Part shown: positions 3,200 through 62,546 of the stretch, one piece after another | How the letters are laid out: each line of letters opens with the position of its first letter | Position numbering within the stretch: the first letter of the stretch is position 1 | Source: Candidatus Dojkabacteria bacterium | Lineage (GTDB): Bacteria; Patescibacteriota; Dojkabacteria; SC72; JAFGCJ01 | Assembly (NCBI GenBank): GCA_016932785.1 | Contig: JAFGCJ010000002.1 | Coordinates: forward strand, 273,777 to 337,776 | Reading direction: 5' to 3' | Length of the DNA stretch: 64,000 bases | Program-made: the position numbers and the translations under genes | Notes under the pieces: model-generated | The model's database searches: none | What the model saw: the letters and a program-made list of their open reading frames with translations, nothing else | What the model was told of the DNA's origin: nothing

Positions 3200-3262
3200 T
3201 GACTATTCTTGCCTCTAACGGCAATTTTTCACCACGATTTCAAGCACTTCTTAGTTGAAATT

Positions 3263-10865: not shown

Positions 10866-10919
10866 TAAAACACCAGATTCATCAACACTATTTTCAACAT
10901 TCACAGAAACAATGCTACA

Positions 10920-11702: not shown

Positions 11703-11792
11703 CACCTTTCGAGAAACTCATTTCCAATTTGTCAGCTAAAATAAAAATCTGTATTATGAAACTAAACCCCTTAACTTTTTATCTCCAAATAA

Positions 11793-12038: not shown

Positions 12039-12079
12039 CGTTCGAACTGTAGATTTTTTAAGTTCACACTGAAAAACGC

Positions 12080-12094
12080 CACCGAAAGGACGGG
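12080..12094. repeat. left arm of an imperfect inverted repeat bracketing the 12.1-13.1 kb G+C-rich cassette
   Basis: CACCGAAAGGACGGG compared with the reverse complement of 13086-13100 (AACCGAAAGGAAGGG): 13/15 identical. It shares the AACCGAA core with the 6980/8013 pair. Confidence 0.6.
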
Positions 12095-12115
12095 CATATC
12101 CGTGGAGCGGATATG

Positions 12116-12148
12116 AATACCATATTAGGGGGATGGTATTGCGTTTTT
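12116..12148 (+). terminator. rho-independent terminator after the 2TM gene
   Basis: AATACCAT / ATGGTATT stem followed by GCGTTTTTAT. It is preceded by a second 8-bp hairpin, CATATCCG / CGGATATG (12095-12115). Confidence 0.6.
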
Positions 12149-12172
12149 ATGTCGGAGAGACAGCTTTCAGCT

Positions 12173-13066: not shown

Positions 13067-13085
13067 TCCCCCAACACAATTTTTT

Positions 13086-13100
13086 CCCTTCCTTTCGGTT
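13086..13100. repeat. right arm of the inverted repeat
   Basis: CCCTTCCTTTCGGTT followed by TTTTAATG. This has the same ..TTCGGTTTTT..AA context as 8013-8034. Confidence 0.6.
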
Positions 13101-13330
13101 TTTTAATGAACTTGAGGCCCATAGAGGGCACTCTTCAGTCATATTATAGCCCACAGTCCACAATGAAGTAAAACCCATTAACAAAAGGAAAATCGTCAAG
13201 AACAGACATCAAAATTTTCTACAAATTCTGTTTTCATGATCTCACACCACATCAGTTAGATCACTTTTCCTATAACAATTCGTATGCAATAATGTATAAG
13301 ACCTCGAATATATTTTAATATCAAATCATC

Positions 13331-13819
13331 ATGCCTAAATCCAAAAAGAAATCCTCCTCAAAAACAGAAGACAAAATTGAAAAGAAAATTTCAGAGGCAA
13401 TAACCCGGAATGCTCCCAAAATTCTAGACGCGCTAATACCCACGATTCTTTTTCCCATCGTATACCTGCTTTTAAATAAATACTACAGAGACATAAAACT
13501 ATTTAACGAGAACTTCAGAGATATTCTTCCCCTTATTAATTTCTCCTTCCTCGCGGGTTTCGTGTTAAGCTTCACTCGACTATTTTTCTGGAATGATAAG
13601 TACAAAAGGATAACAACTATCGCAAGTAATCTTATTTTCCTTTACGTCAATTATCATGTCTGGAATATTTTTCCCTTTGATACCTCAGTAATAGGCAATC
13701 CCAAAACATGGGACACGGTGTTCAGGGTTTTAATGGTAATTGTTACCGTAGCATCAATTTTCGGTACTTTTGCAGAACTCGTAAGGCTTATGACCCCGAA
13801 GGAAGAAGAAAAGAAATAG
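13331..13819 (+). CDS. hypothetical 4-TM membrane protein
   Basis: 162-aa ORF with a Lys-rich N-terminus and several hydrophobic helices. No motif recognised. Confidence 0.5.
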   Translation: MPKSKKKSSSKTEDKIEKKISEAITRNAPKILDALIPTILFPIVYLLLNKYYRDIKLFNENFRDILPLINFSFLAGFVLSFTRLFFWNDKYKRITTIASNLIFLYVNYHVWNIFPFDTSVIGNPKTWDTVFRVLMVIVTVASIFGTFAELVRLMTPKEEEKK

Positions 13820-14190
13820 AGGAGAATAGTACTTACGCAATTTTTTACTCTCCTTAGCCGACAAGCAAGTATCTACACACAAGTGAAAATAAAGCATTAG
13901 TGACCATTATTAATACTCCAAGGGCCAAGGGTATTTTATAAATATCTCCTTTCATATTTCTGCTGTATAAATTTATCATCGGAATTGAACGATTACTCAT
14001 ATAGATACGTGAACCGACCCCAAAAGCAACCAACTCCTCAGTACATACGCCCTCGAACACACCAAAAGTCACCTACTCGTCAAACTCCTGACATTTACGC
14101 TCAACCATTATTGTGGTAACATGCCCAGGGTCATTTTCGGACAAGAATAATGACTTTACACGAAAAACTTGAATTTTTTACTACACAAAC

Positions 14191-24960: not shown

Positions 24961-27900
24961 ATGAACAAGATCAAAGAAGAATTGAAAAGAAGACGCCCCA
25001 TTTTAGGAATAATAATTTCTGTTTCAGTCTTACTTATAGCGGTTATGTTTCCTGTTGCATCACTATTTGAAAATAATTTTCTTGTAAGAATATTTAGGGA
25101 AGGCAATATTAAAGAGAACACCTCCACGAAATTCATAATGTCCATTCCATTTACAAATCAAATATATTTCACTTACGACCTGGGAAAAATTACCATCGAT
25201 GAGCACGGCGCACAGATGAAAGAAGACCAGACAAAGGGAGAAATCGAATTACTTGATCATTTGGAGTTCGAAAGAGGATCAGAGATTCAGGGATTCAAAG
25301 AATACAGCGTTACATCAGATTCATCTTCAATCACTTATCAGATATCGGACGACTATGACAACTGGTACTACTTTAACGGAGAAAAATGGGAACCTGTACA
25401 AGACTGTTCCACCTGTGAAAACAGTGCAAATGAAATTAACGAACATATTGACGATATAGATTTCAAAGAAGGATTTGTAAAAATAAAGACTATACTGAGG
25501 TCCGATGGCAATACAAGTCCAAGGCTGTTAAGACTTGAGCTAGAAATCAACGGGAGCGAACCACGGCTAACACAGAGGCAACGGAACTGGATGACAGTTC
25601 TTGGAGCTTCAGACAATTCCTCCTTAAGCAAGGACAATAATAAGACTATGCAGGAAGGATGTCTGTGCGACAGAGGAATAACGATTATGAGTGTCAGATA
25701 TAACGGCCCTGACGGTGTGACTATCAATGTTACAACAAGAAAATATGGAGACGTTGGAGCATTCATAAATGTACAAGACGGAGACATAATAACAATTGAC
25801 GGTTCGGATCTAGAATTTGCCCGTCTTGGTGCTGAAACAGATTTTGAAATCTCTGGAATCTGTGAAGACGAATTTGACGAAGAATGCATCAAAACAATTA
25901 CGGTTCATACTTCATGCTCAGAACCCATCTTTGGTATAGCCTTTGAAAATATTTCTGTTCTGTCATACATTGACGGGAACGGTAATGTATGTGACGACGA
26001 AAATGATCCTCCTTTAATTCTAGATGATGCTGCAACAATATGTGCAAACACCATGGCCGTCATTGACGTTCTGGCAAACGACAGTGATCCAGACGGCGAG
26101 ATCCTACCAGGAACCGTAGATATAATCTCTAATCCTTCTAAAGGCTCTACTGATATTAATTCACAAACAGGAGTAATACACTATACACCCAATAAAAATT
26201 ACACGGGGACAGATACTTTTATATACGAAGCCTGTGACACAAATAATGCATGCGGAACAGCTACCGTGACAATAATTATTAACGACTGTTCACAAAATGA
26301 CCCACCTGATCCACAAAACGACTACACAAAAATTTGCACAAATGAAAGAACTACTATTAATGTTCTTTCAAATGACTCTGATCCTAATGGAGAAATAGAC
26401 CGTAACACTCTAGAGATTGTATCAGGACCACTACATGGTACAGTAGACGATCTAAACAAGATCCAGGGTTCAATTACTTATACTCCCGATCAGGACTATG
26501 TTGGAAATGACACAATAATTTACCAAATATGCGATAACGACGGAGCATGCTCTTCGGCATCAGTATTTATAACTGTAGAGGAATGCTCCCCACTACCACA
26601 GGTCAACCCGGATCAAGCTCAGCTCTGCGTTAATACAAAAGTGCAGGTTGACATTCTTGCAAACGACTACGATCAAAACAATTCTCTTGATCCAGCAAGT
26701 GTAGCTGTTATCTCCGGACCTGGAAATGGCACATATGAAATTGATCAATCCAACGGAAAAATTACATATATTCCATACAAAGATTTCATCGGAACAGACC
26801 TTCTGAGCTACAGGGTATGCAACTCAAATAATGATTGTTCCACAACAACCCTCACGCTCACTGTTAAGGCATGTACCACAGTCAATCCCCATCTAGTCCT
26901 TGAGATCGACGACTCAGCCATTTGTGATCACGAGGACGTAACAATAACTGCAAAAGGTGTCGTTGTACTGCCTCAAGGTCAGTATGCGAAGCTCCGTTTA
27001 GCCTGGAGAATAGCCGAGCCAGAAGAAAAGCGTACAGAAATAGAATATTATAATTACGGCATAGTCAGCAATGGGTACTCTTTTTTGAAAGATATACCAT
27101 GGCCGGGAATAGACGAGGACGAGGGGATCATCAAAATAGAGGTGACTGCAACCTTGCTTGATCCCGTTACAAATGAGCCTATACTGTCAGAAGACGCACT
27201 CGAAGAATACTACTGGTTCCCATGGATATGTCCACCACCTCCCCCGCCTCCACCTCCACCTCCTCCACCAACAGACTATGAGGGATCAATTAGTATTAAC
27301 ACAAACCTTTGCGGTGTAACATACGGAAACGTTAATCTGACATTCACAGGGCAGACATCTATAAATCCCGATACTATAGAAAACCTTGAATATTCTCTTA
27401 TAACTGCGCTTGAAGAAGGATCTTCCTGGAGAGAAATAGACTTGTCAAAATCAGGTACTTTCATTTTCGACACATTTAATTTAAATAACGGTACATACTA
27501 TCTGGTTGTTAGGGCAACCCTAAAGGACGCCACCGAAATCTATTCTGAATACTGTTCGTTCACTGTAGATCAGACAAAAGCCGATCCAGAGTGCCTAATA
27601 TTTGGAGCAAACCAATTTGTTCTCGAATCTCAGCCTTCACCAATATCCGAAAGTGGAATAATATCTCTTGTAAAAAATGAGCCGCATATCTTTTATCTAG
27701 AGGCCAAATGTGCCTCCAGAGCAGGAGTCGTAAATATGGACACCTCAGAATATTACCCTCTTTCCTATGATCCATATTTGAAGCTGTGGACAGGAGATTT
27801 AACCTTCAAAGAAGAGGGAACGTTCAAGCTTCAGGGAGTAGTCTCCGGTGGAAGCCACAGTTATTTCAGAGAGATCAATACCGCTTTTGTAACTGAGAAG

Positions 27901-28692
27901 TCAACAATTATTGATTCCGACTCGAAAAACCCACTCGAAGAGGTGAATATAACGATCTACAACAAGGATCCGGACACACAAGAATTTTCAAAATGGAACA
28001 GCGAAACTTACAGCATAAGCAATCCTATGAAAACAGACAAAAACGGTGAATTTAGTGTAATTCTTCCGGAAGGTGTCTACTACCTTGAGGCAACAAAGTC
28101 AGGATACAATCCCTCTACTTCCTTGATAACAGAACTGGAGGAACACAGTGTGGTTACAGGTAATATTGAACTTGAACCAAAAGGAAATTTTCTCGCTCAA
28201 ATAGGTCGTTTCTTTAGTAAAAAAGGAAACACATATAATTTTCCGCTCACTATTCATCCTCTTCCAGACCATTATCTACTAGAAATAGGAAGCAGTGTAC
28301 CGGAAATTACGGCCTACAATTCAGAAGGACAATTAGTAAACATTTTAGAAACATACAGTGATAAACCACGAGTAGTAATGGTATATAGCAGCTGGAACAC
28401 ACTGGCTGAAGAGCAGGTAAAACAATTTGTCAGTCTATCAAATACACTCGATGAATACTCCTTCATTCCGATTTCAACCATGGAGCCCGACAACGTAAAC
28501 CTTACATACCTTGATAGAGGAAGATACGACTTGGAATTTTACAAACCCTCAAACTCTTTTTATGACAATTATTTTATTATAAGTTTGCCCGAATTTTTCC
28601 TGATTGACGAGAGTAATAAGGTTCAGGGTATAATAGTAGGACCGAGATCTGAGCAAGAGCTCGAGAGAACAATAACAGATATACTGGACTGA
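24961..28692 (+). CDS. giant surface protein: three tandem Ig/cadherin-like ~95-aa repeats, poly-Pro linker, carboxypeptidase-regulatory-like domain, C-terminal thioredoxin-fold domain lacking CxxC
   Basis: N-terminal TM. Repeats carry the pattern C.N....(I/V)(D/N)VL(A/S)ND.D.(D/N)..(I/L)....(V/L)..(I/V)S.P..G. ...G.I.Y.P...(Y/F).G.D...Y..C(D/N)....C. There are 13 consecutive Pro codons. VNITIYNKD..TDKNGEFSVILPEGVYYLEATKSGY is CarboxypepD_reg-like. RVVMVYSSWNTLAEEQVKQF aligns to the TlpA/ResA FWAsWCxPC site. Confidence 0.7.
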   Translation: MNKIKEELKRRRPILGIIISVSVLLIAVMFPVASLFENNFLVRIFREGNIKENTSTKFIMSIPFTNQIYFTYDLGKITIDEHGAQMKEDQTKGEIELLDHLEFERGSEIQGFKEYSVTSDSSSITYQISDDYDNWYYFNGEKWEPVQDCSTCENSANEINEHIDDIDFKEGFVKIKTILRSDGNTSPRLLRLELEINGSEPRLTQRQRNWMTVLGASDNSSLSKDNNKTMQEGCLCDRGITIMSVRYNGPDGVTINVTTRKYGDVGAFINVQDGDIITIDGSDLEFARLGAETDFEISGICEDEFDEECIKTITVHTSCSEPIFGIAFENISVLSYIDGNGNVCDDENDPPLILDDAATICANTMAVIDVLANDSDPDGEILPGTVDIISNPSKGSTDINSQTGVIHYTPNKNYTGTDTFIYEACDTNNACGTATVTIIINDCSQNDPPDPQNDYTKICTNERTTINVLSNDSDPNGEIDRNTLEIVSGPLHGTVDDLNKIQGSITYTPDQDYVGNDTIIYQICDNDGACSSASVFITVEECSPLPQVNPDQAQLCVNTKVQVDILANDYDQNNSLDPASVAVISGPGNGTYEIDQSNGKITYIPYKDFIGTDLLSYRVCNSNNDCSTTTLTLTVKACTTVNPHLVLEIDDSAICDHEDVTITAKGVVVLPQGQYAKLRLAWRIAEPEEKRTEIEYYNYGIVSNGYSFLKDIPWPGIDEDEGIIKIEVTATLLDPVTNEPILSEDALEEYYWFPWICPPPPPPPPPPPPPTDYEGSISINTNLCGVTYGNVNLTFTGQTSINPDTIENLEYSLITALEEGSSWREIDLSKSGTFIFDTFNLNNGTYYLVVRATLKDATEIYSEYCSFTVDQTKADPECLIFGANQFVLESQPSPISESGIISLVKNEPHIFYLEAKCASRAGVVNMDTSEYYPLSYDPYLKLWTGDLTFKEEGTFKLQGVVSGGSHSYFREINTAFVTEKSTIIDSDSKNPLEEVNITIYNKDPDTQEFSKWNSETYSISNPMKTDKNGEFSVILPEGVYYLEATKSGYNPSTSLITELEEHSVVTGNIELEPKGNFLAQIGRFFSKKGNTYNFPLTIHPLPDHYLLEIGSSVPEITAYNSEGQLVNILETYSDKPRVVMVYSSWNTLAEEQVKQFVSLSNTLDEYSFIPISTMEPDNVNLTYLDRGRYDLEFYKPSNSFYDNYFIISLPEFFLIDESNKVQGIIVGPRSEQELERTITDILD
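26020..26875 (+). repeat. three tandem ~285-nt coding repeats inside the giant surface protein
   Basis: Units start near 26020, 26300 and 26590. Each ends on a ..(V/I).(I/V)...C string (TVTIIINDC / FITVEEC / LTLTVKAC). They are diverged at the DNA level. Confidence 0.7.
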
Positions 28693-33961: not shown

Positions 33962-35476
33962 ATGAACAACCACAAAAAAATCAAAAACAAACTAGACAAA
34001 CTTGGATTTAAGTACCAGACTATTGACCTTGCCACAGAGTCTTTGGATCTCGACGAACAGGTCCGCGCAGGGAATCTTAAATACAGCGAATGTGTTGGAA
34101 CACTTCTAATCAAAGACCAACGGGGTAATTACTATGCTTTCCTTAGAAGAGACGACAGAAAAATGGATGCCGAAAAGGTGAAAACGATTATTGGAAGCGA
34201 CTCATTTGATTTCTGTGATGACAAAGACCTTGAAAAAATAGGATTCGAATCAGGACTTCTTTCTCCAGTACTACTAAACGACGGCAAAAAACCAATCAAA
34301 GTATTTGTAGATCAAAATATCAAAAAGATGAAAGTCGTTAACTGTGGACCGGCAATTCCCGGTGCAACCCTCCGTCTCGATAAAGACGATCTCCTCAAGG
34401 CAGTTGGAGAATATGAATTTATAGATTTTACACAGCCTAACCCCCAGAGATCTGATGATCTTTTCTCCTCTGATAAGGTTGTTTACACCGCTGATACCCC
34501 AACAGGTCAGATGCATATCGGACATTACGTTGGAACACTAGAAAATCGGGTTAAGCTCCAAGATAGATTCAACTGTTTTTTCGGACTTGCCAACTATCAC
34601 TCATTTTCATATATGCAAAAAGGTGAGGGCCTCTATAAGAATCCAGATTTTATTCACGAAGTGACTCTACAGGTTGCCATGGATAATCTAGCGGTAGGAA
34701 TAAACCCCGAAAAGTGTACCTACTATATCGAATCAGATGTTCCTGAGACATGTGAACTTGCAATGCTCTTCAGCATGCTGGTATCACACAACCGCGCCCT
34801 AAGAAATCCGACCATTAAGGACGAAATTAAACTAAAAGGCATGGGAAATCAGTTCTCACTTGGATTCATCAACTATCCAATGCTCCAAGCAGCGGATATC
34901 CTTATATTTAAAGCCGAATTAATTCCTGTCGGCAAAGACCAGTTGCCCCATATTGAGCAATCGAGAGAAATAGCCCGAGACTTTAACGAGCTATATGGTG
35001 AGACATTCCCAATTCCAGAGGGTCTTGTAGGAAAGGTCGGAATGCTTCCAGGACTTGATAACAAAAAAATGAGCAAAAGTCTCGGAAATGCTATCGTATT
35101 CACTGATTCCGACGAAGAAATCAAAAAGAAAATAATGAGCATGTACACCGATCCTAACAGGATACATCCGACTGATCCTGGCAAGGTAAAAGACAACCCC
35201 GTATTTATATACCATGAAGCTTTCAATCCAGATAAGGAAGAAATTGAAGATTTGAAGGAACGCTATGAAACCGGAAAAGTCGGCGATGTGGAGGTAAAGG
35301 AGAAACTGGCAAATGCTATGATTAATTTCATCGCTCCAATTCGAGAAAGAAGAAAGAAATACGAGGATAATCCTGACCTTCTAAGAGAAATTCTATCAGA
35401 AGGCGGCAAAAAAGCTAGAAAAGAAGCAAAGAAAACCATGTCCGAAGTCAGAGAAAAGATGAAACTGGACTTCTAG
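33962..35476 (+). CDS. trpS: tryptophan--tRNA ligase with N-terminal YbaK/ProX-like (tRNA_edit-type) domain
   Basis: Residues ~1-165 follow the YbaK pattern (..CVGTLLIKD..YYAFLRRDDRKMD..GFESGLLSPVLL..VNCGPAIPGATLRL). The class Ic core has TPTGQMHIGHYVG (HIGH), PMLQAADIL, GKDQLPHIEQSREIARDFN and KKMSKS. The upstream T-box has a UGG specifier. Confidence 0.85.
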   Translation: MNNHKKIKNKLDKLGFKYQTIDLATESLDLDEQVRAGNLKYSECVGTLLIKDQRGNYYAFLRRDDRKMDAEKVKTIIGSDSFDFCDDKDLEKIGFESGLLSPVLLNDGKKPIKVFVDQNIKKMKVVNCGPAIPGATLRLDKDDLLKAVGEYEFIDFTQPNPQRSDDLFSSDKVVYTADTPTGQMHIGHYVGTLENRVKLQDRFNCFFGLANYHSFSYMQKGEGLYKNPDFIHEVTLQVAMDNLAVGINPEKCTYYIESDVPETCELAMLFSMLVSHNRALRNPTIKDEIKLKGMGNQFSLGFINYPMLQAADILIFKAELIPVGKDQLPHIEQSREIARDFNELYGETFPIPEGLVGKVGMLPGLDNKKMSKSLGNAIVFTDSDEEIKKKIMSMYTDPNRIHPTDPGKVKDNPVFIYHEAFNPDKEEIEDLKERYETGKVGDVEVKEKLANAMINFIAPIRERRKKYEDNPDLLREILSEGGKKARKEAKKTMSEVREKMKLDF

Positions 35477-35983: not shown

Positions 35984-38173
35984 TTACAGATATTTCAGAA
36001 TTTTAGCCTTGTCCATGTCAACAAACTCAACATTATCCTTATCTCTCTTTTTCATCTCAACCTTATCTTCCTTAAGAGTTTTTTCACTGATAACTATTCT
36101 TAATGGAATACCAATCAAATCAGCATCAGCAAATTTCACTCCTGGTGAAACGTCCGACCTGTCATCCCAAAGAATTTCAACCCCAGATTCTGAAAGATCG
36201 TTATATAGTTTTTCTGATTCTTTTGTGATCTTCTTACCATCGCCAATAGAAACAAGAATCACAGAGAACGGAGCAATGCTCCTGGGCCACACTATTCCGT
36301 TCTCATCGTGATGCATTTCAACAACTGAAGCCATAGCACGTCCAACGCCAATCCCATAGGCTCCCATCCACATAGGTTTTTCCTTCCCATCCTTATCAAC
36401 AAAATAAGCCTTGTGAGGATTAGTGTAATAATGATCATATTTAAAGATATGTCCAACCTCAATTGACTTCTTCTCCTTTAAATAACCGTCCTTACATTTG
36501 GGACACTTCGCACCATCGTATGCCGAGGCAATATCGTCTATCTTTGAAACTTTGAAATCACGACCATAATTAACATTGAATGAATCTGTTGTCTTTTCTT
36601 TAAGTCCTCCAATGAGGTTTTTAGACATTTTTAGTGCAATATCTCCGACATAAATCACATTATCCCTACCCTCATCATGACCCCACGAGTGAACCCACCC
36701 ACTCTTTGTACCAATACTCGTAAGGTCCTCCTCATCAGCATAGTCAAGAACATCAATATCGTCGAACAGATTGGCAATCTTTGTAGCGTTAGCCTCGAGA
36801 TCTCCTCGTACAACGGCAATTATCAATCGCCCCTTTTTGTCTTTGAAAACAACATTCTTAAGAAAATGGGACTTTGGCTTCTTATAATGCTCCACATTTT
36901 CATCCATGGTACATACCCACTCAGGCTGCTCAATAATCTCAAAAGGTTTTTCTTCTTCATCTATGTTTACAGAATCCCTCACAAATTCTGCCTTCTCGAC
37001 GTTTGCTTTATAGCCACACCGGTCACACATGACAATCTTATCTCCTCCTGCACTAAACACCTTGTCCTCTCGAACATCTACGAAGTCTTTTACTTTGAGA
37101 TCCCGTCCAATATTCACATTCTTACGAAAGACTCTCTCCTTATGGGCACCGTCATAATAGTTCTTGTTATATTTAACAGACTCATCGATAATAAGCTCAA
37201 CTTTGCTATCCAGCCCTATCGGAGAAACATAACCAATAAACGATCCCAACTCATCAATCTCAGATTTTGTTGCAGGTCGTATAGTCTTGTACTTAAGCAG
37301 TCTTCGAAGCTTAATGAAGTCAATCCTGTAATCTCCACGTATCGTAATACATATGTACTTTTTCCCATCAACAACATAGACCATGTTCTTCAAAGTTTTT
37401 TCCGGATGTTGTGCATAGAATTTTAGGATCTTCTTATACTCCTTCTGGTTCTTCGACACATCCTCAACTTCCATTCGGAGTTCTTTCTCGTCTTCATCAA
37501 AATATAAATCCAATTCCTGAACTCTTTCAGGGGTAATTACCATAAATTCATGACTATAATCTCCTCCGAGCGCACCATTGTCGGCAATCACAGCCTCTGT
37601 CTTAAGCCCAACACGATTAAAAATCTTCTCGTAGGCCTTCCAGTATGCATCGTAGGTCTTCATAAAAGACTTTTCATCCCTCTCATAATTGTAAGCATCC
37701 TTCATCAAAAACTCTCGAACCCTTATTAGTCCTCCCCGGGGCCTCAACTCATCCCTGAACTTGGGAAGAAACTGATATACATTTATAGGAAGATCTTTAT
37801 AGCTCGGCTTTTCTGACTTTATAACTTCAGTCATAAGCGCTTCAGCTGTAGCACTCATTGCAAAGGTACGGCCAAAATGATCCTTAGCCACAATCATTTG
37901 TTCCCCAAATGCCTCATCACGGTTAGTAATTCTCCAAGGCTCAATAGGCTGCATTATAGGCAGTTCCATTCTCTGAGAACCAATGGCCTCCATCTCCTCA
38001 ACGATTATCTTAATAATCTTATCCTTAACTCGATAACCAAGCGGCATGAATGCATATCTCCCAGTAGCAACCTGCCGAATGAAACCTCCCCTATAAAGGA
38101 GTCTGTGACTTTCAGCCTGTGCATCAGATGGAACGGTCTTAGATGTTTTCAAAAAGTATTCAGTAAATTTCAT
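35984..38173 (-). CDS. proS: proline--tRNA ligase, bacterial type, with duplicated INS (YbaK-like) editing module
   Basis: Class II motifs (FRDELRPRGGLIRVREFLMKDAY; GAYGIGVGRAMASVVE) and a C-terminal anticodon-binding region. At 729 aa it is longer than the usual ~570 aa. It has two INS-like units (LKNMVYV..ITIRGDYRIDFIKL..YVSPIG..NVNIGRDLKV and LKNVVFK..AVVRGDLEANATKI..NVNYGRDFKV). Confidence 0.9.
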   Translation of the reverse strand: MKFTEYFLKTSKTVPSDAQAESHRLLYRGGFIRQVATGRYAFMPLGYRVKDKIIKIIVEEMEAIGSQRMELPIMQPIEPWRITNRDEAFGEQMIVAKDHFGRTFAMSATAEALMTEVIKSEKPSYKDLPINVYQFLPKFRDELRPRGGLIRVREFLMKDAYNYERDEKSFMKTYDAYWKAYEKIFNRVGLKTEAVIADNGALGGDYSHEFMVITPERVQELDLYFDEDEKELRMEVEDVSKNQKEYKKILKFYAQHPEKTLKNMVYVVDGKKYICITIRGDYRIDFIKLRRLLKYKTIRPATKSEIDELGSFIGYVSPIGLDSKVELIIDESVKYNKNYYDGAHKERVFRKNVNIGRDLKVKDFVDVREDKVFSAGGDKIVMCDRCGYKANVEKAEFVRDSVNIDEEEKPFEIIEQPEWVCTMDENVEHYKKPKSHFLKNVVFKDKKGRLIIAVVRGDLEANATKIANLFDDIDVLDYADEEDLTSIGTKSGWVHSWGHDEGRDNVIYVGDIALKMSKNLIGGLKEKTTDSFNVNYGRDFKVSKIDDIASAYDGAKCPKCKDGYLKEKKSIEVGHIFKYDHYYTNPHKAYFVDKDGKEKPMWMGAYGIGVGRAMASVVEMHHDENGIVWPRSIAPFSVILVSIGDGKKITKESEKLYNDLSESGVEILWDDRSDVSPGVKFADADLIGIPLRIVISEKTLKEDKVEMKKRDKDNVEFVDMDKAKILKYL

Positions 38174-39281: not shown

Positions 39282-40907
39282 CTATCTCATTAGGTTCTCC
39301 AGACGTGTAATCAAATCCGCCATACTCTTAGGTTCAAAATGCCTTCTGGCGGGTTCCAAAATCTTTACTACTGCTTCAGATACAGCTGTCTTTAGATCCA
39401 ACGGATGAAGCTTGCCTTCCTCAAACAGATTAAACATTTCCTGCTCAGATTCAAAATTGATATCTCCTCCATGTTTCTTTTCTCTTTTGACCTCTAGCTT
39501 TCCTAAAATAGGAAAAACCAAGTGCTTCGCCCAATCTAAAACGGGATTAAACTCAATCTCCCTTTCAGGACAGAAAGCTCCATTTATCTTCCTTCGTATC
39601 TCATCGACACTGTCATGGATAAACACACACGTATCAGGCTTAGATTTACTCATTTTCATCTCTGACCAAAGTTCTCTAAGCCTTGCCTTATCCTTAATCG
39701 GCCAAACTGGCGGCTTACCAAGACCAAGAATTAGGTGGTGATGAATTGCAACAGGCTTTATCTTATTCTTGCTTTCGTCCAATAATGGAGAGACCTCGAG
39801 TTTTTCAGCAACTTCGCGAGCTATAACATGTGCCTTCCTCTGATCCATACCCCCATGAGCAATATTTACACCAATATTAAAAATATCATTAACCTGCATC
39901 GGCGGATATACAAGCCAGGCAAAGCATTGATTCTCTCCCTCACGCCTACCCATAATCGTGGAACTCTTTACTACACGAGCCAGAGTCAGATTCTTGGAGA
40001 CATCAATAAACGATTGCCAGTACTTATCATTATTGTGATAAAACTCAGATCCAAGGATAAAATTCACTTTCAACGGATCAGCCCCGGCACACTTCAACGA
40101 TGCAATTAATGCTTCCTTAAAATATCCCACTGCAACTTCAGTTATCGTCTCAAGATCTCCATTTAGCTTTCCATTTATCCAGGCATGCCAATCTGCAAGC
40201 AAGATATTGCACTCAACACCGGCCTTGAGTAGATCCTTGATTTTAAGAGCAGTCATAAGTCCGCTCCCAATATGGAGTTTACCGGAAATTTCAAAACCAA
40301 TATAATGGCGAAGCTTAGTTTCTCCAACTATCAGCGATTCCAGATCCTTCTCCGTAAGACACTCTTCAAGATTTCCCGTTATTAAACTTTTCTTCTTTTC
40401 TTGGCTGAGAGAAAGACTCATCTCTATTTTCTCCTTATTACTTAATTTATCGGCCAATTGGGTCACTCTAACATTATGCAATTTACTCAGTGCTTCTTCA
40501 ACACTAAGGTTTATACCCTTAGCCAAATCCCCGGCTCCCATACTCCATCTATCCATATCCGCGGCTTCTTTATCAACCAATATTGGGATGTCAAGCAGGA
40601 AAGGATTTAAACACCCTGGCCGAAACTTAAAATTTTCCGCTAATGCTTGTTCGTCCAGAATATCCCATTTCCCGATGTTTTTCCTCAGAAGCTTCTGATC
40701 AATGCGTTGATCCCCCTTAAGCAGAACAGCAAAAAAGCCCTCAGATGTTTTCACAACTAAAGTCTTTATTGCAATTTGCGGATCATAATTCTTGTCCACT
40801 GAAGAATCGACCTTTCGAGCAGATATGGCCCTATCCGTAAAAGTAATTTCTTCAAAGTTCAGTCCTATTTTCTTCAATTTTCTGGCAACAGAATCAAATG
40901 TATGCAT
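39282..40907 (-). CDS. tyrS: tyrosine--tRNA ligase, archaeal/eukaryotic type, with N-terminal YbaK/ProX-like domain
   Basis: The core closely parallels M. jannaschii TyrRS from memory: HYIGFEISGKLHIGSG, LLADWHAWIN, YPPMQVNDIFNIGVNIAHGGMDQRKAHVIARE, KMSKSKPDTCVFIHDS and HGGDINFESEQEMFNLFEEGKLHPLDLKTAVSEAVVKILEPARR. The N-terminal ~160 aa follow the YbaK pattern (..IAIKTLVVK..FFAVLLKGDQRID..FRPGCLNPFLL..SMGAGDLAKGINLS). Confidence 0.88.
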   Translation of the reverse strand: MHTFDSVARKLKKIGLNFEEITFTDRAISARKVDSSVDKNYDPQIAIKTLVVKTSEGFFAVLLKGDQRIDQKLLRKNIGKWDILDEQALAENFKFRPGCLNPFLLDIPILVDKEAADMDRWSMGAGDLAKGINLSVEEALSKLHNVRVTQLADKLSNKEKIEMSLSLSQEKKKSLITGNLEECLTEKDLESLIVGETKLRHYIGFEISGKLHIGSGLMTALKIKDLLKAGVECNILLADWHAWINGKLNGDLETITEVAVGYFKEALIASLKCAGADPLKVNFILGSEFYHNNDKYWQSFIDVSKNLTLARVVKSSTIMGRREGENQCFAWLVYPPMQVNDIFNIGVNIAHGGMDQRKAHVIAREVAEKLEVSPLLDESKNKIKPVAIHHHLILGLGKPPVWPIKDKARLRELWSEMKMSKSKPDTCVFIHDSVDEIRRKINGAFCPEREIEFNPVLDWAKHLVFPILGKLEVKREKKHGGDINFESEQEMFNLFEEGKLHPLDLKTAVSEAVVKILEPARRHFEPKSMADLITRLENLMR

Positions 40908-40931: not shown

Positions 40932-41014
40932 TCCAGGGGGCAGGATTCGAACCTGCGAAGCCTTTCAGCGTTGGATTTACAGTCCAATGCATTTGACCAC
41001 TCTGCCACCCCTGG
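40932..41014 (-). tRNA. tRNA-Tyr (anticodon GUA), class II with long variable arm, no encoded CCA
   Basis: Minus strand: CCAGGGG-UG-GCA(GAGUGGUCAAA)UGC-A-UUGGA(CUGUAAA)UCCAA-CGCUGAAAGGCUUC-GCAGG(UUCGAAU)CCUGC-CCCCUGG-A. It has a 7-bp acceptor stem, the T-loop consensus and discriminator A. It ends 24 nt upstream of the tyrS ATG. Confidence 0.92.
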
Positions 41015-46123: not shown

Positions 46124-46150
46124 TGTCAGGCATAGGCTATGCCTGACATA
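46124..46150. repeat. REP palindrome flanking the RAYT gene (3' side)
   Basis: ATGTCAGGCATAG-G-CTATGCCTGACAT has 13-nt perfect arms around a single central nt. It overlaps the last codons and stop of the RAYT ORF. Confidence 0.8.
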
Positions 46151-46607
46151 GAGTCTTTGTAAAATGAATGTATCGTGGATTAATGTATAACCACTTGTAA
46201 AAGGAAGGGTCGTATACATACCCTTCCTTGACCGGATTTCTCTCGATATACCTGATCAGCCTACGTAAACTGCTCTTTGTGAAAACAGATTTTGCTTGAT
46301 AACGCCCCTGAAAAGTATGCCCCACAAGCCTATATTTCAAATTGAAATATTTCGAATATGATGTTAAAAGTCTCTGCATAAGAATTGATATCTCATCGCC
46401 AAAACCCTGCCTAACAACCAAATGAAAATGATTATCCATAAGACAATATCCTATTAGCTCTATACCACAATCAAAGACAGTCCTCTTCAATTTACTAATA
46501 AAGAATAACCGGTCTATTCTCGACCGAAAAATCCTTTTTTTTCTATTACCACGATTGTATACATGATATATAACACCAGATTTATAGTCCCTCTTAACTC
46601 TATTCAT
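46137..46607 (-). mobile_element. REP-associated tyrosine transposase (RAYT; IS200/IS605 Y1 transposase-like)
   Basis: 156 aa. VIYHVYNRGN, the HUH motif LMDNHFHLVV, GHTFQGRYQAK and the catalytic-Tyr region LIRYIERNPVKEG. It is flanked on both sides by cognate palindromes. Confidence 0.85.
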
Positions 46608-48825: not shown

Positions 48826-50460
48826 CTAGGGGTCTACCCCAAACGCAATTCCGCAGTAGGTTTCCGCTCCGTTGCTGTCGATAACGTAAGCCCGCACCGT
48901 GTGGTACGTGCCAGCACTCCAGTTTCCAACGAGCGCCGTCTGAGTGTTCACATTGAGATTCCGGTACATGTCCACGGTCCACCAGATTTCTTCTATCTCG
49001 GCTGTACTGGTAACATGGACTGTCGCGTAGATGTCCTGGTTCTTGGGAACATACCACCACGTCTCGAATCTGGTCGTTGGAGCCAGAGAGATATTACACT
49101 CGATCTGCTCCTGCATTTGCGACTGGTGCCCGTTCAATATCAAAGGGAGATACACCAGGCTTTGCTCTTCCCAGCAGGCTACACGAACATGCGCATAGGA
49201 ATTCCCGGTCTCTTCGTCGTCCGAGTATCCCTGGAGCCAACAACTGTTGCTAAGAGCCACCACATCGGGGTAATTAGCCCCGAAAAGCGCCTCGGGTACA
49301 ACAGTCTGGCTTTCTGTGATGACAACTCCATCGCGCTGGACGAGAGCCATCTGGAGACCCGACAGGTCTTCCAACGGGTTGCTCTGCGTCGTGATCGAGC
49401 GGTATGTGACGTTGATACCGACACTTGATTCCGTGACCGCCGGATACATTTCATGGCGATTGGTCACATCGGTCAGCGCCCAGTCCCGCAAGTGGACACC
49501 TGCAGAAGAGTACGTCGTACCAGAGATGTGCCACGTAGCTCCGGGAACCTCATCCTCGTGAGCCCAGGTCACATGGACACGCCCGTTCCCGTCAATCGCA
49601 ACGTCAGGAAACTGATCGAACCCCGCCAAGAGCAAGTCCTCTCTGTGAGCGACCGCTGCATTCGACGGATCCAGCCAAGCGACACTTACGTCTCGCCGGC
49701 ATTCTGCAACCCCACAGCTATCATTGTAGTACCTACTGCTGTGATAGGCCGCAACGATCAAAGTATCACCATCTACCTGTCGCGAAGCCATGCGAACAGC
49801 AGAAGCTGTCCCGGCAGCTCCGGCAGGAGATACCGATCGCTCAGACCCGACAGTCGCAATGCCGGCACTCACAGTCACGGGAACCGCGTCTAGTTCTTGG
49901 TTGTGGCGATACACTACGACCCAGGAGTTCCCACCAGCATACGCCAGGGCGATACCGCCAAGGTTGGTCGACACCGAAGGAGTAAACGTCACTGTAGGAG
50001 CTAGCACTGTGCCTCCCACATTGTAGTGGGTGCACCTCACCGCACCCGGACCCGAGGTCCCAGCGACATACTCCGACCAGCAAACTATTACCTGCTGGCC
50101 ATTCCAAGAGCTCGCGATCTTTACGCGCGCGCCGTTTCCTGTCACCGTATACACCCCTTGAACTGTTACCGTCTTGTTCAACACTATGAGATCGCTCATC
50201 GTGACGGTTCCATCTGAGGCATAATCAGCGGCTAGAACTCGGCTATCCGACAGATTAACAAGTTCGACATGTGCCCCTGATCCCAAGTCCAAGACAGGAC
50301 CGAGTACGATGCTTTCGTTTCCAGCAGCCAACACATCGTCGGCAGTGCTCTGGGAAGAGGGGGCAGCGACCACATTCTCGCCTGGAAGGGCCAGAATAAG
50401 CGCCACCAATCCAACAACAGCGGCCAAAACCGCAATACATACATTCAATTTCTTGTTCAT
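48826..50460 (-). CDS. secreted hypothetical protein (strongly G+C-rich ORFan)
   Basis: Track ORF trimmed to Met56 (MNKKLNVCIAVLAAVVGLVALILALP.., a signal peptide), which is preceded by AAGGAG. A spot count gives 35/60 G+C at 49861-49920. Many alternate-frame shadow ORFs are present. Confidence 0.65.
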   Translation of the reverse strand: MNKKLNVCIAVLAAVVGLVALILALPGENVVAAPSSQSTADDVLAAGNESIVLGPVLDLGSGAHVELVNLSDSRVLAADYASDGTVTMSDLIVLNKTVTVQGVYTVTGNGARVKIASSWNGQQVIVCWSEYVAGTSGPGAVRCTHYNVGGTVLAPTVTFTPSVSTNLGGIALAYAGGNSWVVVYRHNQELDAVPVTVSAGIATVGSERSVSPAGAAGTASAVRMASRQVDGDTLIVAAYHSSRYYNDSCGVAECRRDVSVAWLDPSNAAVAHREDLLLAGFDQFPDVAIDGNGRVHVTWAHEDEVPGATWHISGTTYSSAGVHLRDWALTDVTNRHEMYPAVTESSVGINVTYRSITTQSNPLEDLSGLQMALVQRDGVVITESQTVVPEALFGANYPDVVALSNSCWLQGYSDDEETGNSYAHVRVACWEEQSLVYLPLILNGHQSQMQEQIECNISLAPTTRFETWWYVPKNQDIYATVHVTSTAEIEEIWWTVDMYRNLNVNTQTALVGNWSAGTYHTVRAYVIDSNGAETYCGIAFGVDP

Positions 50461-50877
50461 TTCGTAGCTCCTTTTTTTTCGTGTCTGATTTTTGAACTTT
50501 ATTAACACCTTTTTACCTGATTTGCCCGTTTTAGCTAGCGGATATACTAAAGACAAAAATCTACCAAAATGATGAGGCCTTGAACCACCTCTTATCCCCA
50601 GTATATCCGCTGCTATAACAAGCAACTTTTTTCTGCTGCTGCTTTACTAAAACCGATAGCTATTTTCTCGTGGTCTACCATTAAATAAGGTAAGCACACA
50701 ACAAGCCATCGTAAATAGCATTATAACCTTTAATAAAGCAACTTTATCAAAGAACTAATTAATTGCTATATAAAATTATTATACCAGATACAGCCAATAA
50801 ATTAAATACACTATAGGTTGTCACGAGGCGCTATTTCTGATATACTTTCACCATATATTAACTATTTACTAGCCAAA

Positions 50878-57181: not shown

Positions 57182-57562
57182 CTAGCAACAATAATACTTA
57201 TCTTTCACACCTTTCTTTCTATCACCAAAAGGATTTCCATACTTTCTAACATTTTTCATCATTTCATTATTAGATGGTGTATTATCGCCTTTCTTCGCAA
57301 GAATTCTTCTAGCCTTAAGGATAGCGTCATAGAGCTTAACACCGTTCGGGCAGGCTATTTCACAAGCTCTGCAGCCCGTACAGCAAAAAATCTGATCCTT
57401 GTCGATCTTTCCGTTCTTGAGCATAAATGCCCTTCCTCTAGCCGAATATCCTTCACGTCTCAAAGCTTTGAATACAGGACAAACACTCCTGCAAAATCCA
57501 CAATTTGAGCATTTTCTGAGTATCTCTTTAATTTCAAGCAATTCTTTTTCTTCTCTGCTCAT
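57182..57562 (-). CDS. 2x[4Fe-4S] ferredoxin-type protein (GlcF/HdrD N-terminal-like)
   Basis: CSNCGFCRSVCP and CTGCRACEIACP clusters, with SARGRAFML between them as in GlcF. Confidence 0.75.
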   Translation of the reverse strand: MSREEKELLEIKEILRKCSNCGFCRSVCPVFKALRREGYSARGRAFMLKNGKIDKDQIFCCTGCRACEIACPNGVKLYDAILKARRILAKKGDNTPSNNEMMKNVRKYGNPFGDRKKGVKDKYYCC

Positions 57563-57594
57563 TTACCTTTGAAAGCCTTCAAAACTTAGAAAAT

Positions 57595-58776
57595 TTAACC
57601 AATTGACCGGAAAACACCGTCAGGATCGTATTTTTTCTTTATTTTTATAAATTCTGCCCTTACATCTTCTGGCATATATTCCGATTTTGCTGTTCCATAA
57701 CCATGCTCTCCTGTAACATTTCCGCCTATTTTAACAACAAAATCCAACATTTCCCGCAGCAGATCTTCCTGGTCCGTCCTAAAACGTGGATGAAAGATTC
57801 CATATCCGATATGGCCAAAGACAGGAATTTTGTGCTTTCTAAACCAATTCAACAAATTTTCCTTTTGATCTATTTTCGTAACGTAGGGATCGTCAAGCAG
57901 CATAAATCCAGCAGCAGTAAGAACACTTCCCAACCCTACTCTACTCTTCCAAACTTTTCCTTTTTCAATGGCTTTTACACTACCTCGAGAGTAGTCAGAA
58001 TACTCAATTATCAGCCTATAATTGGAAGGAGAAATTTTTGAATATTCGCAACATATCGGGCACATAAACTCAAGCATAGCAACATTTTTGTCGTCCTGTA
58101 GTTCACTTATCTTTGAAATGAGCTCTACAATCGAATCAAATTCCAGAATATCATAAGATATGTCTTTATTTATCTTAATAGTATCAAGTATAAGTCTTGT
58201 TACAATACCAAAAGTTCCTTCTTTTCCCGAAAGCCTCTTGATTTCATCATCGTCATCTATTACTCGAGTTTTGCCTGTACCATCGACAAATTCTATTTCT
58301 CTTACCCAATCCGACATTCTTCCATATCTCATTCCCCTCATACCAATAGCGTTAGTAGAATACATACCACCAATTGTTGCAGCCATCAACGACGCTGGTG
58401 TAACAGGAAAAAAACGGTCAGACAAAGCAAGACAGTCATTAAGTTCAGAAAGAATAACACCTGAACCTACTTCCACAGATGATCCTGTTAATTTTATGAA
58501 ATCAAAAGCAGATAGATCTAAAACAATACCGGTTGTAGGGACACTGGCACCAGTCATAGAAGTTCCACCACCTCGAACAGTTAGCAAAATCTCGACTTCG
58601 TTTGCTAATTTCACAACCTCAGACACTTGGCGAAGTTCGGTCGGAATTATAACTGCATCGCATTGACCAGACACAACACTAAAATCAGTAGAACAAATAT
58701 CTAGATCTGAAGGACCTTCAAAAACAATCTGCGGATATCTATCTTTTACTTTTTCGAGAAATGAAGAATCATTCAT
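57595..58776 (-). CDS. FAD-linked oxidase (GlcD / D-lactate dehydrogenase-like)
   Basis: Start at Met22 (MNDSSFLEK), giving an ATGAATGA overlap with the upstream stop. VRGGGTSMTGASVP is the FAD_binding_4 motif. C-terminal GEHGYG. Confidence 0.8.
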   Translation of the reverse strand: MNDSSFLEKVKDRYPQIVFEGPSDLDICSTDFSVVSGQCDAVIIPTELRQVSEVVKLANEVEILLTVRGGGTSMTGASVPTTGIVLDLSAFDFIKLTGSSVEVGSGVILSELNDCLALSDRFFPVTPASLMAATIGGMYSTNAIGMRGMRYGRMSDWVREIEFVDGTGKTRVIDDDDEIKRLSGKEGTFGIVTRLILDTIKINKDISYDILEFDSIVELISKISELQDDKNVAMLEFMCPICCEYSKISPSNYRLIIEYSDYSRGSVKAIEKGKVWKSRVGLGSVLTAAGFMLLDDPYVTKIDQKENLLNWFRKHKIPVFGHIGYGIFHPRFRTDQEDLLREMLDFVVKIGGNVTGEHGYGTAKSEYMPEDVRAEFIKIKKKYDPDGVFRSIG

Positions 58777-59566
58777 CAGTACTAAATATTGAAGAAATAT
58801 CCTTAATATTAATATTGTGATAAGGAATTGATCGTTCATTAGAATTACGAAGCCTTAACAGACACATTGGGCATGACGTATAAATAAGTTGCGCCTTTAT
58901 AGATAATGCCTCCTTAATCCTGTTCCCACAGATATCGTTGGATATTTGAGTATTATTAGTACCCATTCCAGCACCACCTCCACAGCAGGAAGCCTTTTCC
59001 TTGTTTTTTTGCATTTCTACAAAGTCACCTCCACGCGCCTTAAGCGATTCATTAATAATAAATCTCGGTTCATCATAAATACCCGAATATCTTCCAAGGT
59101 GACAAGGATCATGATACGTAATAAGAACATCCTCCTTCGCTACTTGAAGTAGATGACCCTCTGTCAGCTTTGACTTTTTTTCAAGTTCATTAGCAATCAC
59201 AACTGACGAGTGTTCAACATTAATATTCCAATTCCCCTCCAAGATCTCTTTGTAATCATTACTCAGTACTCTATAGCAAGCTGGACAATTTGTAATTATT
59301 TTACCAACCCCATACTCATGAAAAATTTCGGCATTCTTTTTTACCAAAGTAACGAAATCATCGAATTCACCAGAATTATTTACCGGCGAACCACAACAAT
59401 TTTCTACACCTTCTAGCTCAATAAATTCAATCCCTAATAATCTGAATATGCTCCGATATTTCTCCAGAAGATCTGTTAATACAAACCGTGTTAAACAACC
59501 CGGATAATATAAGGTATTTCCAGTAGAAAATTTTTCAAATAGTTTTCCGAAAAAACTCATAGACAA
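58769..59566 (-). CDS. CCG-domain (Fe-S)-binding protein (GlcF/HdrD C-terminal-like, LutA-like)
   Basis: Two Cys-rich CCG domains: YYPGC..NCCGSP..NCPACY and YHDPCHL..SCCGGG..SCPMC. Confidence 0.75.
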   Translation of the reverse strand: MSMSFFGKLFEKFSTGNTLYYPGCLTRFVLTDLLEKYRSIFRLLGIEFIELEGVENCCGSPVNNSGEFDDFVTLVKKNAEIFHEYGVGKIITNCPACYRVLSNDYKEILEGNWNINVEHSSVVIANELEKKSKLTEGHLLQVAKEDVLITYHDPCHLGRYSGIYDEPRFIINESLKARGGDFVEMQKNKEKASCCGGGAGMGTNNTQISNDICGNRIKEALSIKAQLIYTSCPMCLLRLRNSNERSIPYHNINIKDISSIFSTDE

Positions 59567-60761: not shown

Positions 60762-61019
60762 TTACTTATTCTCTGATGGTCTCGCAAAGTCAACTTTCAA
60801 CTGTCTTCCATCCAGCTCCTTACCGTTCAGGGTGTCAATAGCAGCCTGAGCTTCAGCTTCACTGGACATTGTGACAAAGGCAAAGCCTCTTGATCTTCCA
60901 GAGATCTTGTCACGAATTATGCTACATTCCTCAACAGTACCAGCCTGGCTGAAGAACTCGCTTAGGGCCTCTTCGGTCGTGTCCCAACTGAGGTTGCCTA
61001 CAAAAACCTTATTGTTCAT
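60762..61019 (-). CDS. RNA-binding protein (single RRM domain)
   Basis: 85 aa. RNP-2 is KVFVGNL and RNP-1 is RGFAFVTM. Confidence 0.9.
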   Translation of the reverse strand: MNNKVFVGNLSWDTTEEALSEFFSQAGTVEECSIIRDKISGRSRGFAFVTMSSEAEAQAAIDTLNGKELDGRQLKVDFARPSENK

Positions 61020-61213
61020 TAAAGATAATGAATAAAAAATAAAAACTAACTACTGAAAAAAGAATAAATCTTTCTGAGCCGTAAACTTGTTCATGTAGCT
61101 CAATTTCTGTAGCCGAGATATTATATCAAAAACATAGAGAAAAGTTTATATCGATGATAGTATGAATTTATTATGATAAAATAGGATTAAATAATTTGTA
61201 ATTAATCAAACTT

Positions 61214-61966
61214 ATGAAGAAGCTCCGGACCTATAACCTAATAATGGGCTTTTTTCATCTAATTCAGGCTGGTCTGATGATTGCCCTCAGTAACGATTTC
61301 GCTCTTCCAGTGACAACACGTTATCTTAGATTTAATATACAAACTCAATCATTGCAACCCAAGTCTGAAGAGATAGCTACTCTCAAAATAGGCCCTCTGG
61401 TAGCACTTTTCTTACTTATGTCCGCGATGGCCCACTTTCTATTAACAATTCCGAGAATTTACAACTGGTACACCAAGAATCTAAAAAAGGGGATAAACTA
61501 CGCCAGATGGTACGAGTATTCCCTCAGTTCCTCGGTAATGATTGTTGTAATAGCAATGCTTACTGGAGTTTATGACTTGAGTAGTCTCATTCTAATGTTT
61601 TCAATAAATGCGATGATGATATTCTGCGGACTAATGATGGAAAGGCACAATCAAAACACCAAGAAAACGGACTGGGTGCCGTATGTGTTCGGTTGCTTCG
61701 CAGGAGCTGTACCTTGGGTTGTTATTGCCCTTTATCTATTCGGTTCAGCCGACGGAGAGAATCGAGCACCAGATTTCGTTTACTATATATTCTTCTCGAT
61801 TTTCCTGTTCTTCAACTCTTTTGCTGTAAATATGTTTTTGCAGTACAAGAAGGTTGGAAAATGGAAGGACTACTTATTCGGAGAAAAGGTATACATTTTG
61901 CTCAGTCTGCTTGCCAAATCACTACTAGCCTGGCAGGTATTCGGAGGAACTTTGAGACCGGAATAA
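61214..61966 (+). CDS. heliorhodopsin
   Basis: 250 aa with 7 TM. There are long collinear matches to heliorhodopsin 48C12 as I recall it: FHLIQ..LSNDFALP, RWYEYSLSSSVMIV (Glu101 is the counterion position), FGCFAGAVPW, FLFFNSFA, and LQYKKVGKWKDYLFGEKVYILLSLLAKSLLAWQVFGGTL. Lys235, codon 61916-61918, is at the Schiff-base position. Confidence 0.88.
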   Translation: MKKLRTYNLIMGFFHLIQAGLMIALSNDFALPVTTRYLRFNIQTQSLQPKSEEIATLKIGPLVALFLLMSAMAHFLLTIPRIYNWYTKNLKKGINYARWYEYSLSSSVMIVVIAMLTGVYDLSSLILMFSINAMMIFCGLMMERHNQNTKKTDWVPYVFGCFAGAVPWVVIALYLFGSADGENRAPDFVYYIFFSIFLFFNSFAVNMFLQYKKVGKWKDYLFGEKVYILLSLLAKSLLAWQVFGGTLRPE

Positions 61967-62024
61967 AAAAAATTACGTTAAAAAACCAGCTTTACTTCAT
62001 GTAAATGAGTGATAAAATCGTCCT

Positions 62025-62546
62025 ATGTCCTCAGAGGTTCGGATTGATAACACTCCAGAAAGAGACAAAGCCCTTAATGTAAGTGTTGTATTGGTTACCG
62101 GTTTCACCCCTATAGATGGAATATGCTTCCTGCTTGCAGAAAGAACGGAAACAGGACAAATGACTTTTCCGGGAGGTACTATGGAACCAGAAGAAATTTC
62201 TACAGTAGAAACAGCCACAAGAGAGCTTAGAGAAGAGACAGGTCTTGAGATGCCTATTTCAATACAAAACGAACTTGCTCCACCTATCCCATTACGAAGA
62301 ATTATGGACGACGGTGCAATAATAGACTTTCATATATTTGTCGTGCCTCTGGTACATATGTGTACTGCAGTGACTAACGGACTAGACGAAGAAATCGGGA
62401 AATGGAAATTCTATTCTGAAAGCCAAATCTACAGTGGAAACGATAAATTCCGAGATGTGCGGTGGATTTTAGACCATATTAGAATAAAAGCCCCTGCCTA
62501 TTTTCTTGTAGAATGCGCCTTAATGCAGCCCCGCCCGTTTAGGTGA
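62025..62546 (+). CDS. NUDIX hydrolase
   Basis: Nudix box GGTMEPEEISTVETATRELREETGL (G-x5-E-x7-REUxEExGU). Confidence 0.85.
   Translation: MSSEVRIDNTPERDKALNVSVVLVTGFTPIDGICFLLAERTETGQMTFPGGTMEPEEISTVETATRELREETGLEMPISIQNELAPPIPLRRIMDDGAIIDFHIFVVPLVHMCTAVTNGLDEEIGKWKFYSESQIYSGNDKFRDVRWILDHIRIKAPAYFLVECALMQPRPFR

Follow-up and report, generated by a model that had tools for sequence, protein, structure and literature searches.

A canonical heliorhodopsin of Candidatus Dojkabacteria and its genomic neighbourhood

What can be said of the role of a heliorhodopsin (HeR) in a bacterium with no retinal-synthesis genes in view, and do the genes around it help to answer the question? The locus that raises this is an ATG-to-TAA open reading frame (ORF) of 250 codons plus stop at 61214..61966 (+) of the window, by which we mean the whole stretch of 64,000 nucleotides of contig JAFGCJ010000002.1 that was analysed. 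A preliminary description of this DNA had taken the ORF for a full-length HeR and had guessed at a reduced-genome, episymbiont-type host. The guess was a good one, as the exact protein is on record from a metagenome-assembled genome (MAG) of Candidatus Dojkabacteria, a member of the CPR/Patescibacteria: an exact-sequence look-up returned NCBI MBN2100709.1, deposited as "heliorhodopsin HeR [Candidatus Dojkabacteria bacterium]" and identical to the window protein. The same HeR sequence is present in the assembly of run SRR13394437. HeRs of this lineage have been reported before, with seven from Dojkabacteria among the 98 found in a screen of 1326 CPR genomes (Chiriac et al., 2022; PMC9166423), and HeR gene contexts have been described across monoderm phyla, Patescibacteria included (Bulzu et al., 2021; PMC8612252). 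Given the identical named deposit, the published Dojkabacteria HeRs and the published proposals of retinal scavenging, the presence of a HeR in Dojkabacteria, its annotation and the scavenging idea are already known. The significance of the ORF beyond a correct annotation is slight, and the window sequence easily passes the dedicated HeR model of the NCBI pipeline.

Family assignment, functional residues and fold

The claim of a full-length HeR is borne out by two family profiles, both of which match the ORF from end to end. The Pfam Heliorhodopsin profile PF18761 is covered at positions 1-242 of 242 (E=1.3e-105, 352.5 bits, cutoff 26.7) and the NCBIfam HeR equivalog NF038020 at positions 1-244 of 244 (360.3 bits, cutoff 100). 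Among proteins of solved structure, the best sequence matches in HMMER are TaHeR from Thermoplasmatales archaeon SG8-52-1 (PDB 6is6, E=3.7e-84; further entries 7u55 and 7clj) and 48C12, the actinobacterial founding member of the family (E about 1e-65; PDB 6su3, 6su4, 6uh3 and 9ljj). Identity from a three-way MAFFT alignment is 56% to TaHeR over 243 aligned residues and 48% to 48C12. A wider search of protein databases with the HeR sequence returned 7000 proteins at E<=1e-10, dozens of them from CPR MAGs at 66-76% identity. Two other assignments were considered and rejected. Membership of another seven-helix family had as its sole candidate the one additional Pfam match, ABA_GPCR (E=6e-4), which falls under the cutoff of that family. 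A type-1 microbial rhodopsin was rejected as well, with no match to PF01036 at E<=0.01 and with SxxxK rather than DxxxK as the motif in TM7.

The preliminary description had also singled out a lysine, a glutamate and two histidines, and the motifs it quoted are all found in the protein, i.e., FFHLIQ (H15), AMAHFLL (H74), RWYEYSLSSS (E101) and SLLAKSLLAWQ (K235). In the MAFFT alignment the four residues coincide with those of characterised HeRs, and in HMMER too the lysine and glutamate are in register with 48C12 and TaHeR rather than misaligned. The predicted retinal Schiff-base lysine, K235 (codon AAA, 61916..61918, +), corresponds to K238 of TaHeR and K241 of 48C12, and the predicted Schiff-base counterion, E101 (codon GAG, 61514..61516, +), to E108 and E107, respectively. 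H15 (codon CAT, 61256..61258, +) is the equivalent of H23 in both proteins and H74 (codon CAC, 61433..61435, +) that of H82 in TaHeR and H80 in 48C12. All four are invariant in 37/37 close homologs (66-75% identity). The agreement extends to a longer set of residues, in which H15, S70, H74, N95, R98, W99 and E101 of the window HeR equal H23, S76, H80, N101, R104, W105 and E107 of 48C12, and Y102, E143, P167, S231, K235 and W240 equal Y108, E149, P172, S237, K241 and W246. P167 apart, these residues are invariant in the alignment of 37 homologs, and P167 is invariant in a separate listing. K235 closes the S231-x3-K235 motif of TM7 (S231-L-L-A-K235), which aligns with S234/K238 of TaHeR and S237/K241 of 48C12. 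An SxxxK motif in TM7 has been used as a criterion for HeRs, with SLVAK, SLIAK and SFVAK as its commonest forms (PMC9166423), whereas the window HeR has SLLAK.

Further positions, at 61682..61825 (+), belong to the lateral fenestration and a putative carotenoid-binding site. In 48C12 the fenestration positions are 162, 166, 169, 206, 207 and 210, and a rule stated in that numbering asks for aromatic residues paired at 162 and 206, small ones at 166 and 210, a glycine at 169 and an asparagine at 207 (bioRxiv 10.1101/2025.11.27.691015). All six positions of the window HeR agree with it, with Y157/F200 as the aromatic pair, C161/A204 as the small residues, G164 and N201; Y157, C161 and G164 lie in TM5 and F200, N201 and A204 in TM6.

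The AlphaFold2 model (pLDDT 85.5, pTM 0.83) has seven helices and an AB beta-hairpin typical of HeRs at residues 30-58 (strands 30-41 and 46-58). The top Foldseek matches to this model are TaHeR at TM 0.86-0.89 (rmsd 2.4 to 6is6 at TM 0.89) and 48C12 at TM 0.82-0.87, whereas type-1 rhodopsins reach a query-normalised TM of just 0.43-0.63 with 8-15% identity. Lysines and arginines number 14 in the N-terminal, BC, DE and FG segments vs. six in the AB, CD, EF and C-terminal segments, a distribution that fits an inverted topology with a predicted cytoplasmic N-terminus. Profiles, residues, fold, topology signal and fenestration thus all agree, and the window HeR has every family-defining feature that is open to sequence testing. 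Judged by its sequence, the ORF is a genuine, intact, canonical heliorhodopsin of Candidatus Dojkabacteria.

The two characterised relatives differ in what they share with it. TaHeR is the closer in overall identity and is of the same length class, with the AB beta-hairpin in common. Its H23/H82/E108/S234/K238 are equivalent to H15/H74/E101/S231/K235, its fenestration residues Y164/C168/G171/F203/N204/A207 to Y157/C161/G164/F200/N201/A204, and its M210 to M207. It differs in coming from an archaeal host rather than a CPR bacterium, in having an EF loop four residues shorter, and at the pocket residues S106, N132, I136 and F197, where the window HeR follows 48C12 and not TaHeR. All functional residues and the fenestration are likewise common to 48C12, however, this protein has Q213 where the window HeR has M207 and belongs to a more distant clade.

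Host, phylogeny and neighbouring genes

The preliminary description called the genome AT-rich, which holds in a moderate sense and no further, the GC content of the window being 40.2%. When 80 sequences were placed in a neighbour-joining tree with 48C12 as outgroup, the HeR grouped within a CPR clade in which Dojkabacteria are abundant, and TaHeR fell in a separate Thermoplasmata clade. The HeRs already on record from Dojkabacteria/WS6 and further CPR bacteria (NCBI entries such as UR61_C0008G0011, CVU76_02455 and the identical MBN2100709.1) share the clade of the window HeR. Recent horizontal transfer of the gene was rejected because its GC content equals that of the window (0.408 vs. 0.402) and the protein is nested in the CPR clade. 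The window as a whole is bacterial in character, with bacterial-type TruB and ProRS, MacB/FtsX, TetR and a single-RRM protein, and many of its ORFs have no family match. Two HeR contigs in the comparison, L007 (CAZJUO010000049.1, 9.1 kb) and L045 (CAZOCX010000106.1, 2.9 kb), are labelled "uncultured Gammaproteobacteria". Gammaproteobacteria are a diderm group said to be without HeRs. The HeRs of both contigs are placed within the CPR clade of the tree, therefore mis-binning is the likely cause of the label.

Pfam searches of the flanking ORFs confirm the gene order given in the preliminary description, in which HeR sits between an RRM gene and a NUDIX gene. Divergent from HeR, at 60762..61019 (-), lies a gene for an 85-aa single-RRM RNA-binding protein (RRM_1, E=3.5e-26), which scores 93.8 bits against NCBIfam Rbp_regulator, slightly under the cutoff of 100. 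The AT-rich intergenic region between the two divergent genes (61020..61213, 194 bp) contains sigma-70-like sites at 61145-61174 and 61154-61182 (+), found by consensus scan, which make up a candidate HeR promoter. On the other side, 58 bp separate HeR from a NUDIX hydrolase gene on the same strand (spacer 61967..62024, +). This gene, at 62025..62546 (+), encodes 173 aa and matches Pfam PF00293 (E=1.3e-10) with no specific (MutT-type) NCBIfam assignment; its NUDIX box carries a one-residue insertion, G-x5-E-x8-RE-x2-EE-x-G, and was missed by a rigid NUDIX-box regular expression. No terminator-like hairpin was found within the 58-bp spacer, and a consensus scan marks a promoter-like sigma-70 site there at 61991-62018 (+; TTTACT-16-TAAAAT with an upstream TG). 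The preliminary description had called HeR monocistronic, but with such a spacer the gene may or may not share a transcript with NUDIX. Rfam returned no RNA elements near the HeR gene. No alpha/beta hydrolase or ABC gene lies beside HeR, the nearest ones being >40 kb away.

The surroundings of this locus have some features of their own. Three NUDIX paralogs (173, 132 and 148 aa) form a local expansion within 6 kb 3' of HeR, with genes for DUF5655, arginase-family and hypothetical proteins between them (10812-16616 of locus L001, a segment that runs from window position 62025 to about 5 kb past the right end of the window). With three such paralogs so close together, a HeR-NUDIX adjacency by chance is likely. 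To the left, 1.6 kb upstream of HeR, a minus-strand trio at 57182-59566 encodes a Fer4 protein, an FAD-linked oxidase (FAD_binding_4 plus FAD-oxidase_C) and a CCG cysteine-rich protein, a set that resembles glycolate/D-lactate oxidase. In the relative L085 a different pair, CCG plus LUD, lies directly 5' of HeR and is not orthologous to the CCG set of the window by phmmer.

The preliminary description had suggested NUDIX or RRM genes as recurrent partners of HeR. For the comparison, 80 HeR loci were taken from named genomes serving as species representatives, and the neighbourhoods of four of the closest relatives (71-74% identical) were added. When eight neighbours from the window (FAD oxidase, CCG, TetR, Zn-ribbon, RRM, NUDIX, a 203-aa hypothetical protein and DUF5655) were searched by phmmer against the six-frame ORFs of the 80 loci, only the self-matches of L001 were recovered, and none of the 84 other HeR loci has the same NUDIX/RRM neighbours as the window. 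Among the four close relatives, two have a Na/Pi cotransporter and DUF1295 beside HeR, one has MerR and DUF2177, and one has the CCG/LUD lactate-utilisation pair. The nearest gene on each side was also called for each locus, and the resulting 74 downstream and 71 upstream proteins were scanned against Pfam. No family was counted more than three times (SDR 3, DUF2177 3, Na_Pi_cotrans 2, AhpC-TSA 2); NUDIX accounted for at most one of the 71 upstream and at most one of the 74 downstream neighbours, and RRM for fewer than two on either side. The orientation of the downstream gene is near random, with 41 on the same strand vs. 34 on the opposite one. Neither NUDIX nor RRM is among the ten HeR neighbour groups of a 2024 study, to which two of the recurrent families recovered here do belong (PMC11109279). 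In the same study only 38.6% of helR genes were predicted to be co-transcribed with their neighbours, and the lack of a conserved neighbour seen here agrees with that figure (PMC11109279).

The phmmer and Pfam comparison over the 84 other loci refutes the idea of NUDIX or RRM as recurrent partners. Within this clade no genomic partner of HeR is conserved, and the adjacency to NUDIX and RRM is probably incidental. The negative result is useful in that neither gene is worth pursuing as a HeR partner and, with no conserved genomic partner to go by, the function of the protein must come from experiments rather than from gene context. A gene for DUF1295, a steroid-reductase/ICMT-like membrane protein, is found 0.5-7.4 kb from HeR in five of ~84 distinct loci, three of them from Dojkabacteria (L082 at 3187-3945, L086 at 3057-3839, L011, L028 and L058). 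The DUF1295 gene of the window (819-1580, +) is 60 kb from HeR and the HeR-DUF1295 association is weak.

Chromophore supply and proposed function

The preliminary description had seen no carotenoid, blh or retinal genes in the window, and this stands, as Pfam searches of the window ORFs of >=90 aa, together with precomputed Pfam results for the rest, yielded none. Pfam families for carotenoid synthesis, Blh and carotenoid oxygenases were absent from the window, 10 kb to its right (L001) and 5.7 kb to its left (L088), which amounts to ~80 kb of the 598,548-bp contig. From known CPR metabolism we infer that the pathway is absent genome-wide, the sequence scan itself covering these ~80 kb. The reduced metabolism of CPR genomes and the lack of a crt, blh or carotenoid-oxygenase gene close by make it probable that the chromophore comes from hosts or surroundings and enters through the fenestration. 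There are parallels for such a supply. Rhodopsin-bearing Saccharibacteria are without blh and have been proposed to take up retinal from their hosts (Jaffe et al., 2022; PMC9296517), and the host of TaHeR is also without a retinal pathway, external retinal being loaded rapidly via an opening in the apoprotein (PMC9296517, citing Shihoya 2019). The Saccharibacteria rhodopsins (SacRs) resemble the present case in their CPR host, in having no blh (here, none within the ~80 kb scanned) and in a proposed supply of all-trans retinal from outside by way of an opening in the apoprotein. However, SacRs are type-1 rhodopsins with a DTS motif, which pump protons outward and have the opposite topology in the membrane (PMC9296517), whereas the window HeR is without a PF01036 match and is expected to be non-pumping. 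A preprint on bacterial schizorhodopsins contains nothing on retinal synthesis in Patescibacteria.

The reading that we favour, with a probability of roughly 0.65, is that the window HeR is a non-pumping light sensor or regulator with a slow photocycle, which uses exogenous retinal and acts on a partner encoded away from its own gene. By homology to TaHeR and 48C12, the protein would bind all-trans retinal, which green light would convert to the 13-cis form. The Schiff-base proton would then move to an internal acceptor group without a net transport of ions, and an intermediate with a long lifetime would serve as the signalling state. In that state the protein may modulate one or more partners via its positively charged cytoplasmic loops. 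Other HeRs have been shown to modulate glutamine synthetase, a photolyase and an ABC exporter. Judging from context, the retinal of the window HeR would be supplied from outside and would enter through the TM5/TM6 fenestration. The partner gene would not adjoin HeR, and "regulator" is to be read as a class-level statement.

Several other readings have to be weighed against this one. If HeR and the downstream NUDIX gene were co-transcribed as a functional pair, light-activated HeR could modulate the hydrolase, for example in cleaning up photo-oxidised nucleotides. The shared strand, the short gap and the missing terminator-like hairpin speak for such a pair, as do the regulation of adjacent enzymes by other HeRs (PMC11109279), the mitigation of oxidative stress that has been discussed as a role of HeRs in CPR bacteria (PMC9166423) and the unrelated NUDIX gene that lies immediately upstream of the HeR in L002 (HeR 73% identical). 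However, the ortholog of the window NUDIX adjoins HeR in no other locus by phmmer, NUDIX is all but missing from the upstream and downstream neighbours (<=1/71 and <=1/74), and the four closest relatives compared have quite different genes at these places. The gap holds its own promoter-like site, the cluster of three paralogs makes a chance adjacency likely, and NUDIX stands outside the ten published neighbour groups (PMC11109279), with no MutT-type NCBIfam assignment for the window protein. Such a pair is highly improbable in our view. A light-harvesting or ion-transporting rhodopsin is unlikely too, whether it is thought of as a proton transporter like the viral V2HeR3 or as a "two-antenna" device that combines an exogenous xanthophyll with retinal. 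The 56% identity to TaHeR counts against it, and so does the behaviour of TaHeR and 48C12, which reportedly do not transport ions. It would draw on the agreement at all six positions of the carotenoid-binding site and fenestration, on the benefit that supplementary energy would bring to CPR bacteria and on the proposal of two-antenna harvesting for 91% of monoderm HeRs, but antenna binding by HeRs rests on docking and not on demonstrated energy transfer, and the transporting viral subfamily is without the carotenoid-binding site that the window HeR has (10.1101/2025.11.27.691015).

The remaining readings turn on the chromophore. The failure to find a retinal pathway in the window and its flanks, as well as the occurrence of related HeRs in groundwater CPR MAGs (L008), would suit an apoprotein or a light-independent role in a cell with no chromophore supply, possibly in a dark or anoxic habitat. 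Against this, 37/37 relatives keep the Schiff-base lysine, the counterion and the residues of the pocket despite 25-34% overall divergence. Unless retinal is bound, such constancy is difficult to account for, and we therefore consider such a role very unlikely. It is conceivable, if distinctly doubtful, that in this bacterium, which apparently makes neither retinal nor carotenoids, the holoprotein depends on pigments from a host or neighbour (retinal and possibly a xanthophyll antenna at the fenestration) and reports "light plus pigment-producing host nearby" to a cytoplasmic partner. If this were true, HeR would be a chromophore-gated host-sensing device rather than the plain light sensor of the favoured reading.

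Other features of the window

Away from HeR, two synthetase genes flank that of the bacterial-type ProRS (35984-38173), and each of the two carries an N-terminal YbaK/ProRS-type editing domain (PF04073) of ~140 aa. One encodes a TyrRS of archaeal type at 39282-40907 (-) (NF006330, 404 bits; editing domain E=1.7e-16) and the other a TrpRS at 33962-35476 (+) (TIGR00233, 276 bits; editing domain E=7.6e-19). Beside the TyrRS gene, at 40932-41014 (-), lies a tRNA-Tyr(GTA) whose C1-G72 pair, A73 and V-arm are of archaeal identity. An archaeal-type TyrRS and a C1-G72 tRNA-Tyr have been published for WS6/Dojkabacteria (PMC5370408), the fusion in that paper being one of the PheRS-beta B2-domain and not of YbaK-like domains on both class Ic synthetases (PMC5370408).

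A 599-aa ORF at 48826-50625 (-) has a GC content of 0.537 and a GC3 of 0.575 vs. about 0.40 and 0.36 for the remaining window. It begins with a signal/TM-like segment and has no Pfam or NCBIfam match. With an IS200/Y1 transposase gene (46137-46607, -) only ~2 kb away, this ORF may be foreign DNA. Two large surface proteins are encoded in the region, one of 1243 aa at 24961-28692 (+) with Big_9, cadherin-like and CshA repeats and another of >2400 aa in L001 (18915-20753, -) with Ig-like repeats and a Peptidase_M23 domain. Very large surface proteins of this kind are typical of the attachment/lysis machinery of episymbiotic CPR bacteria.
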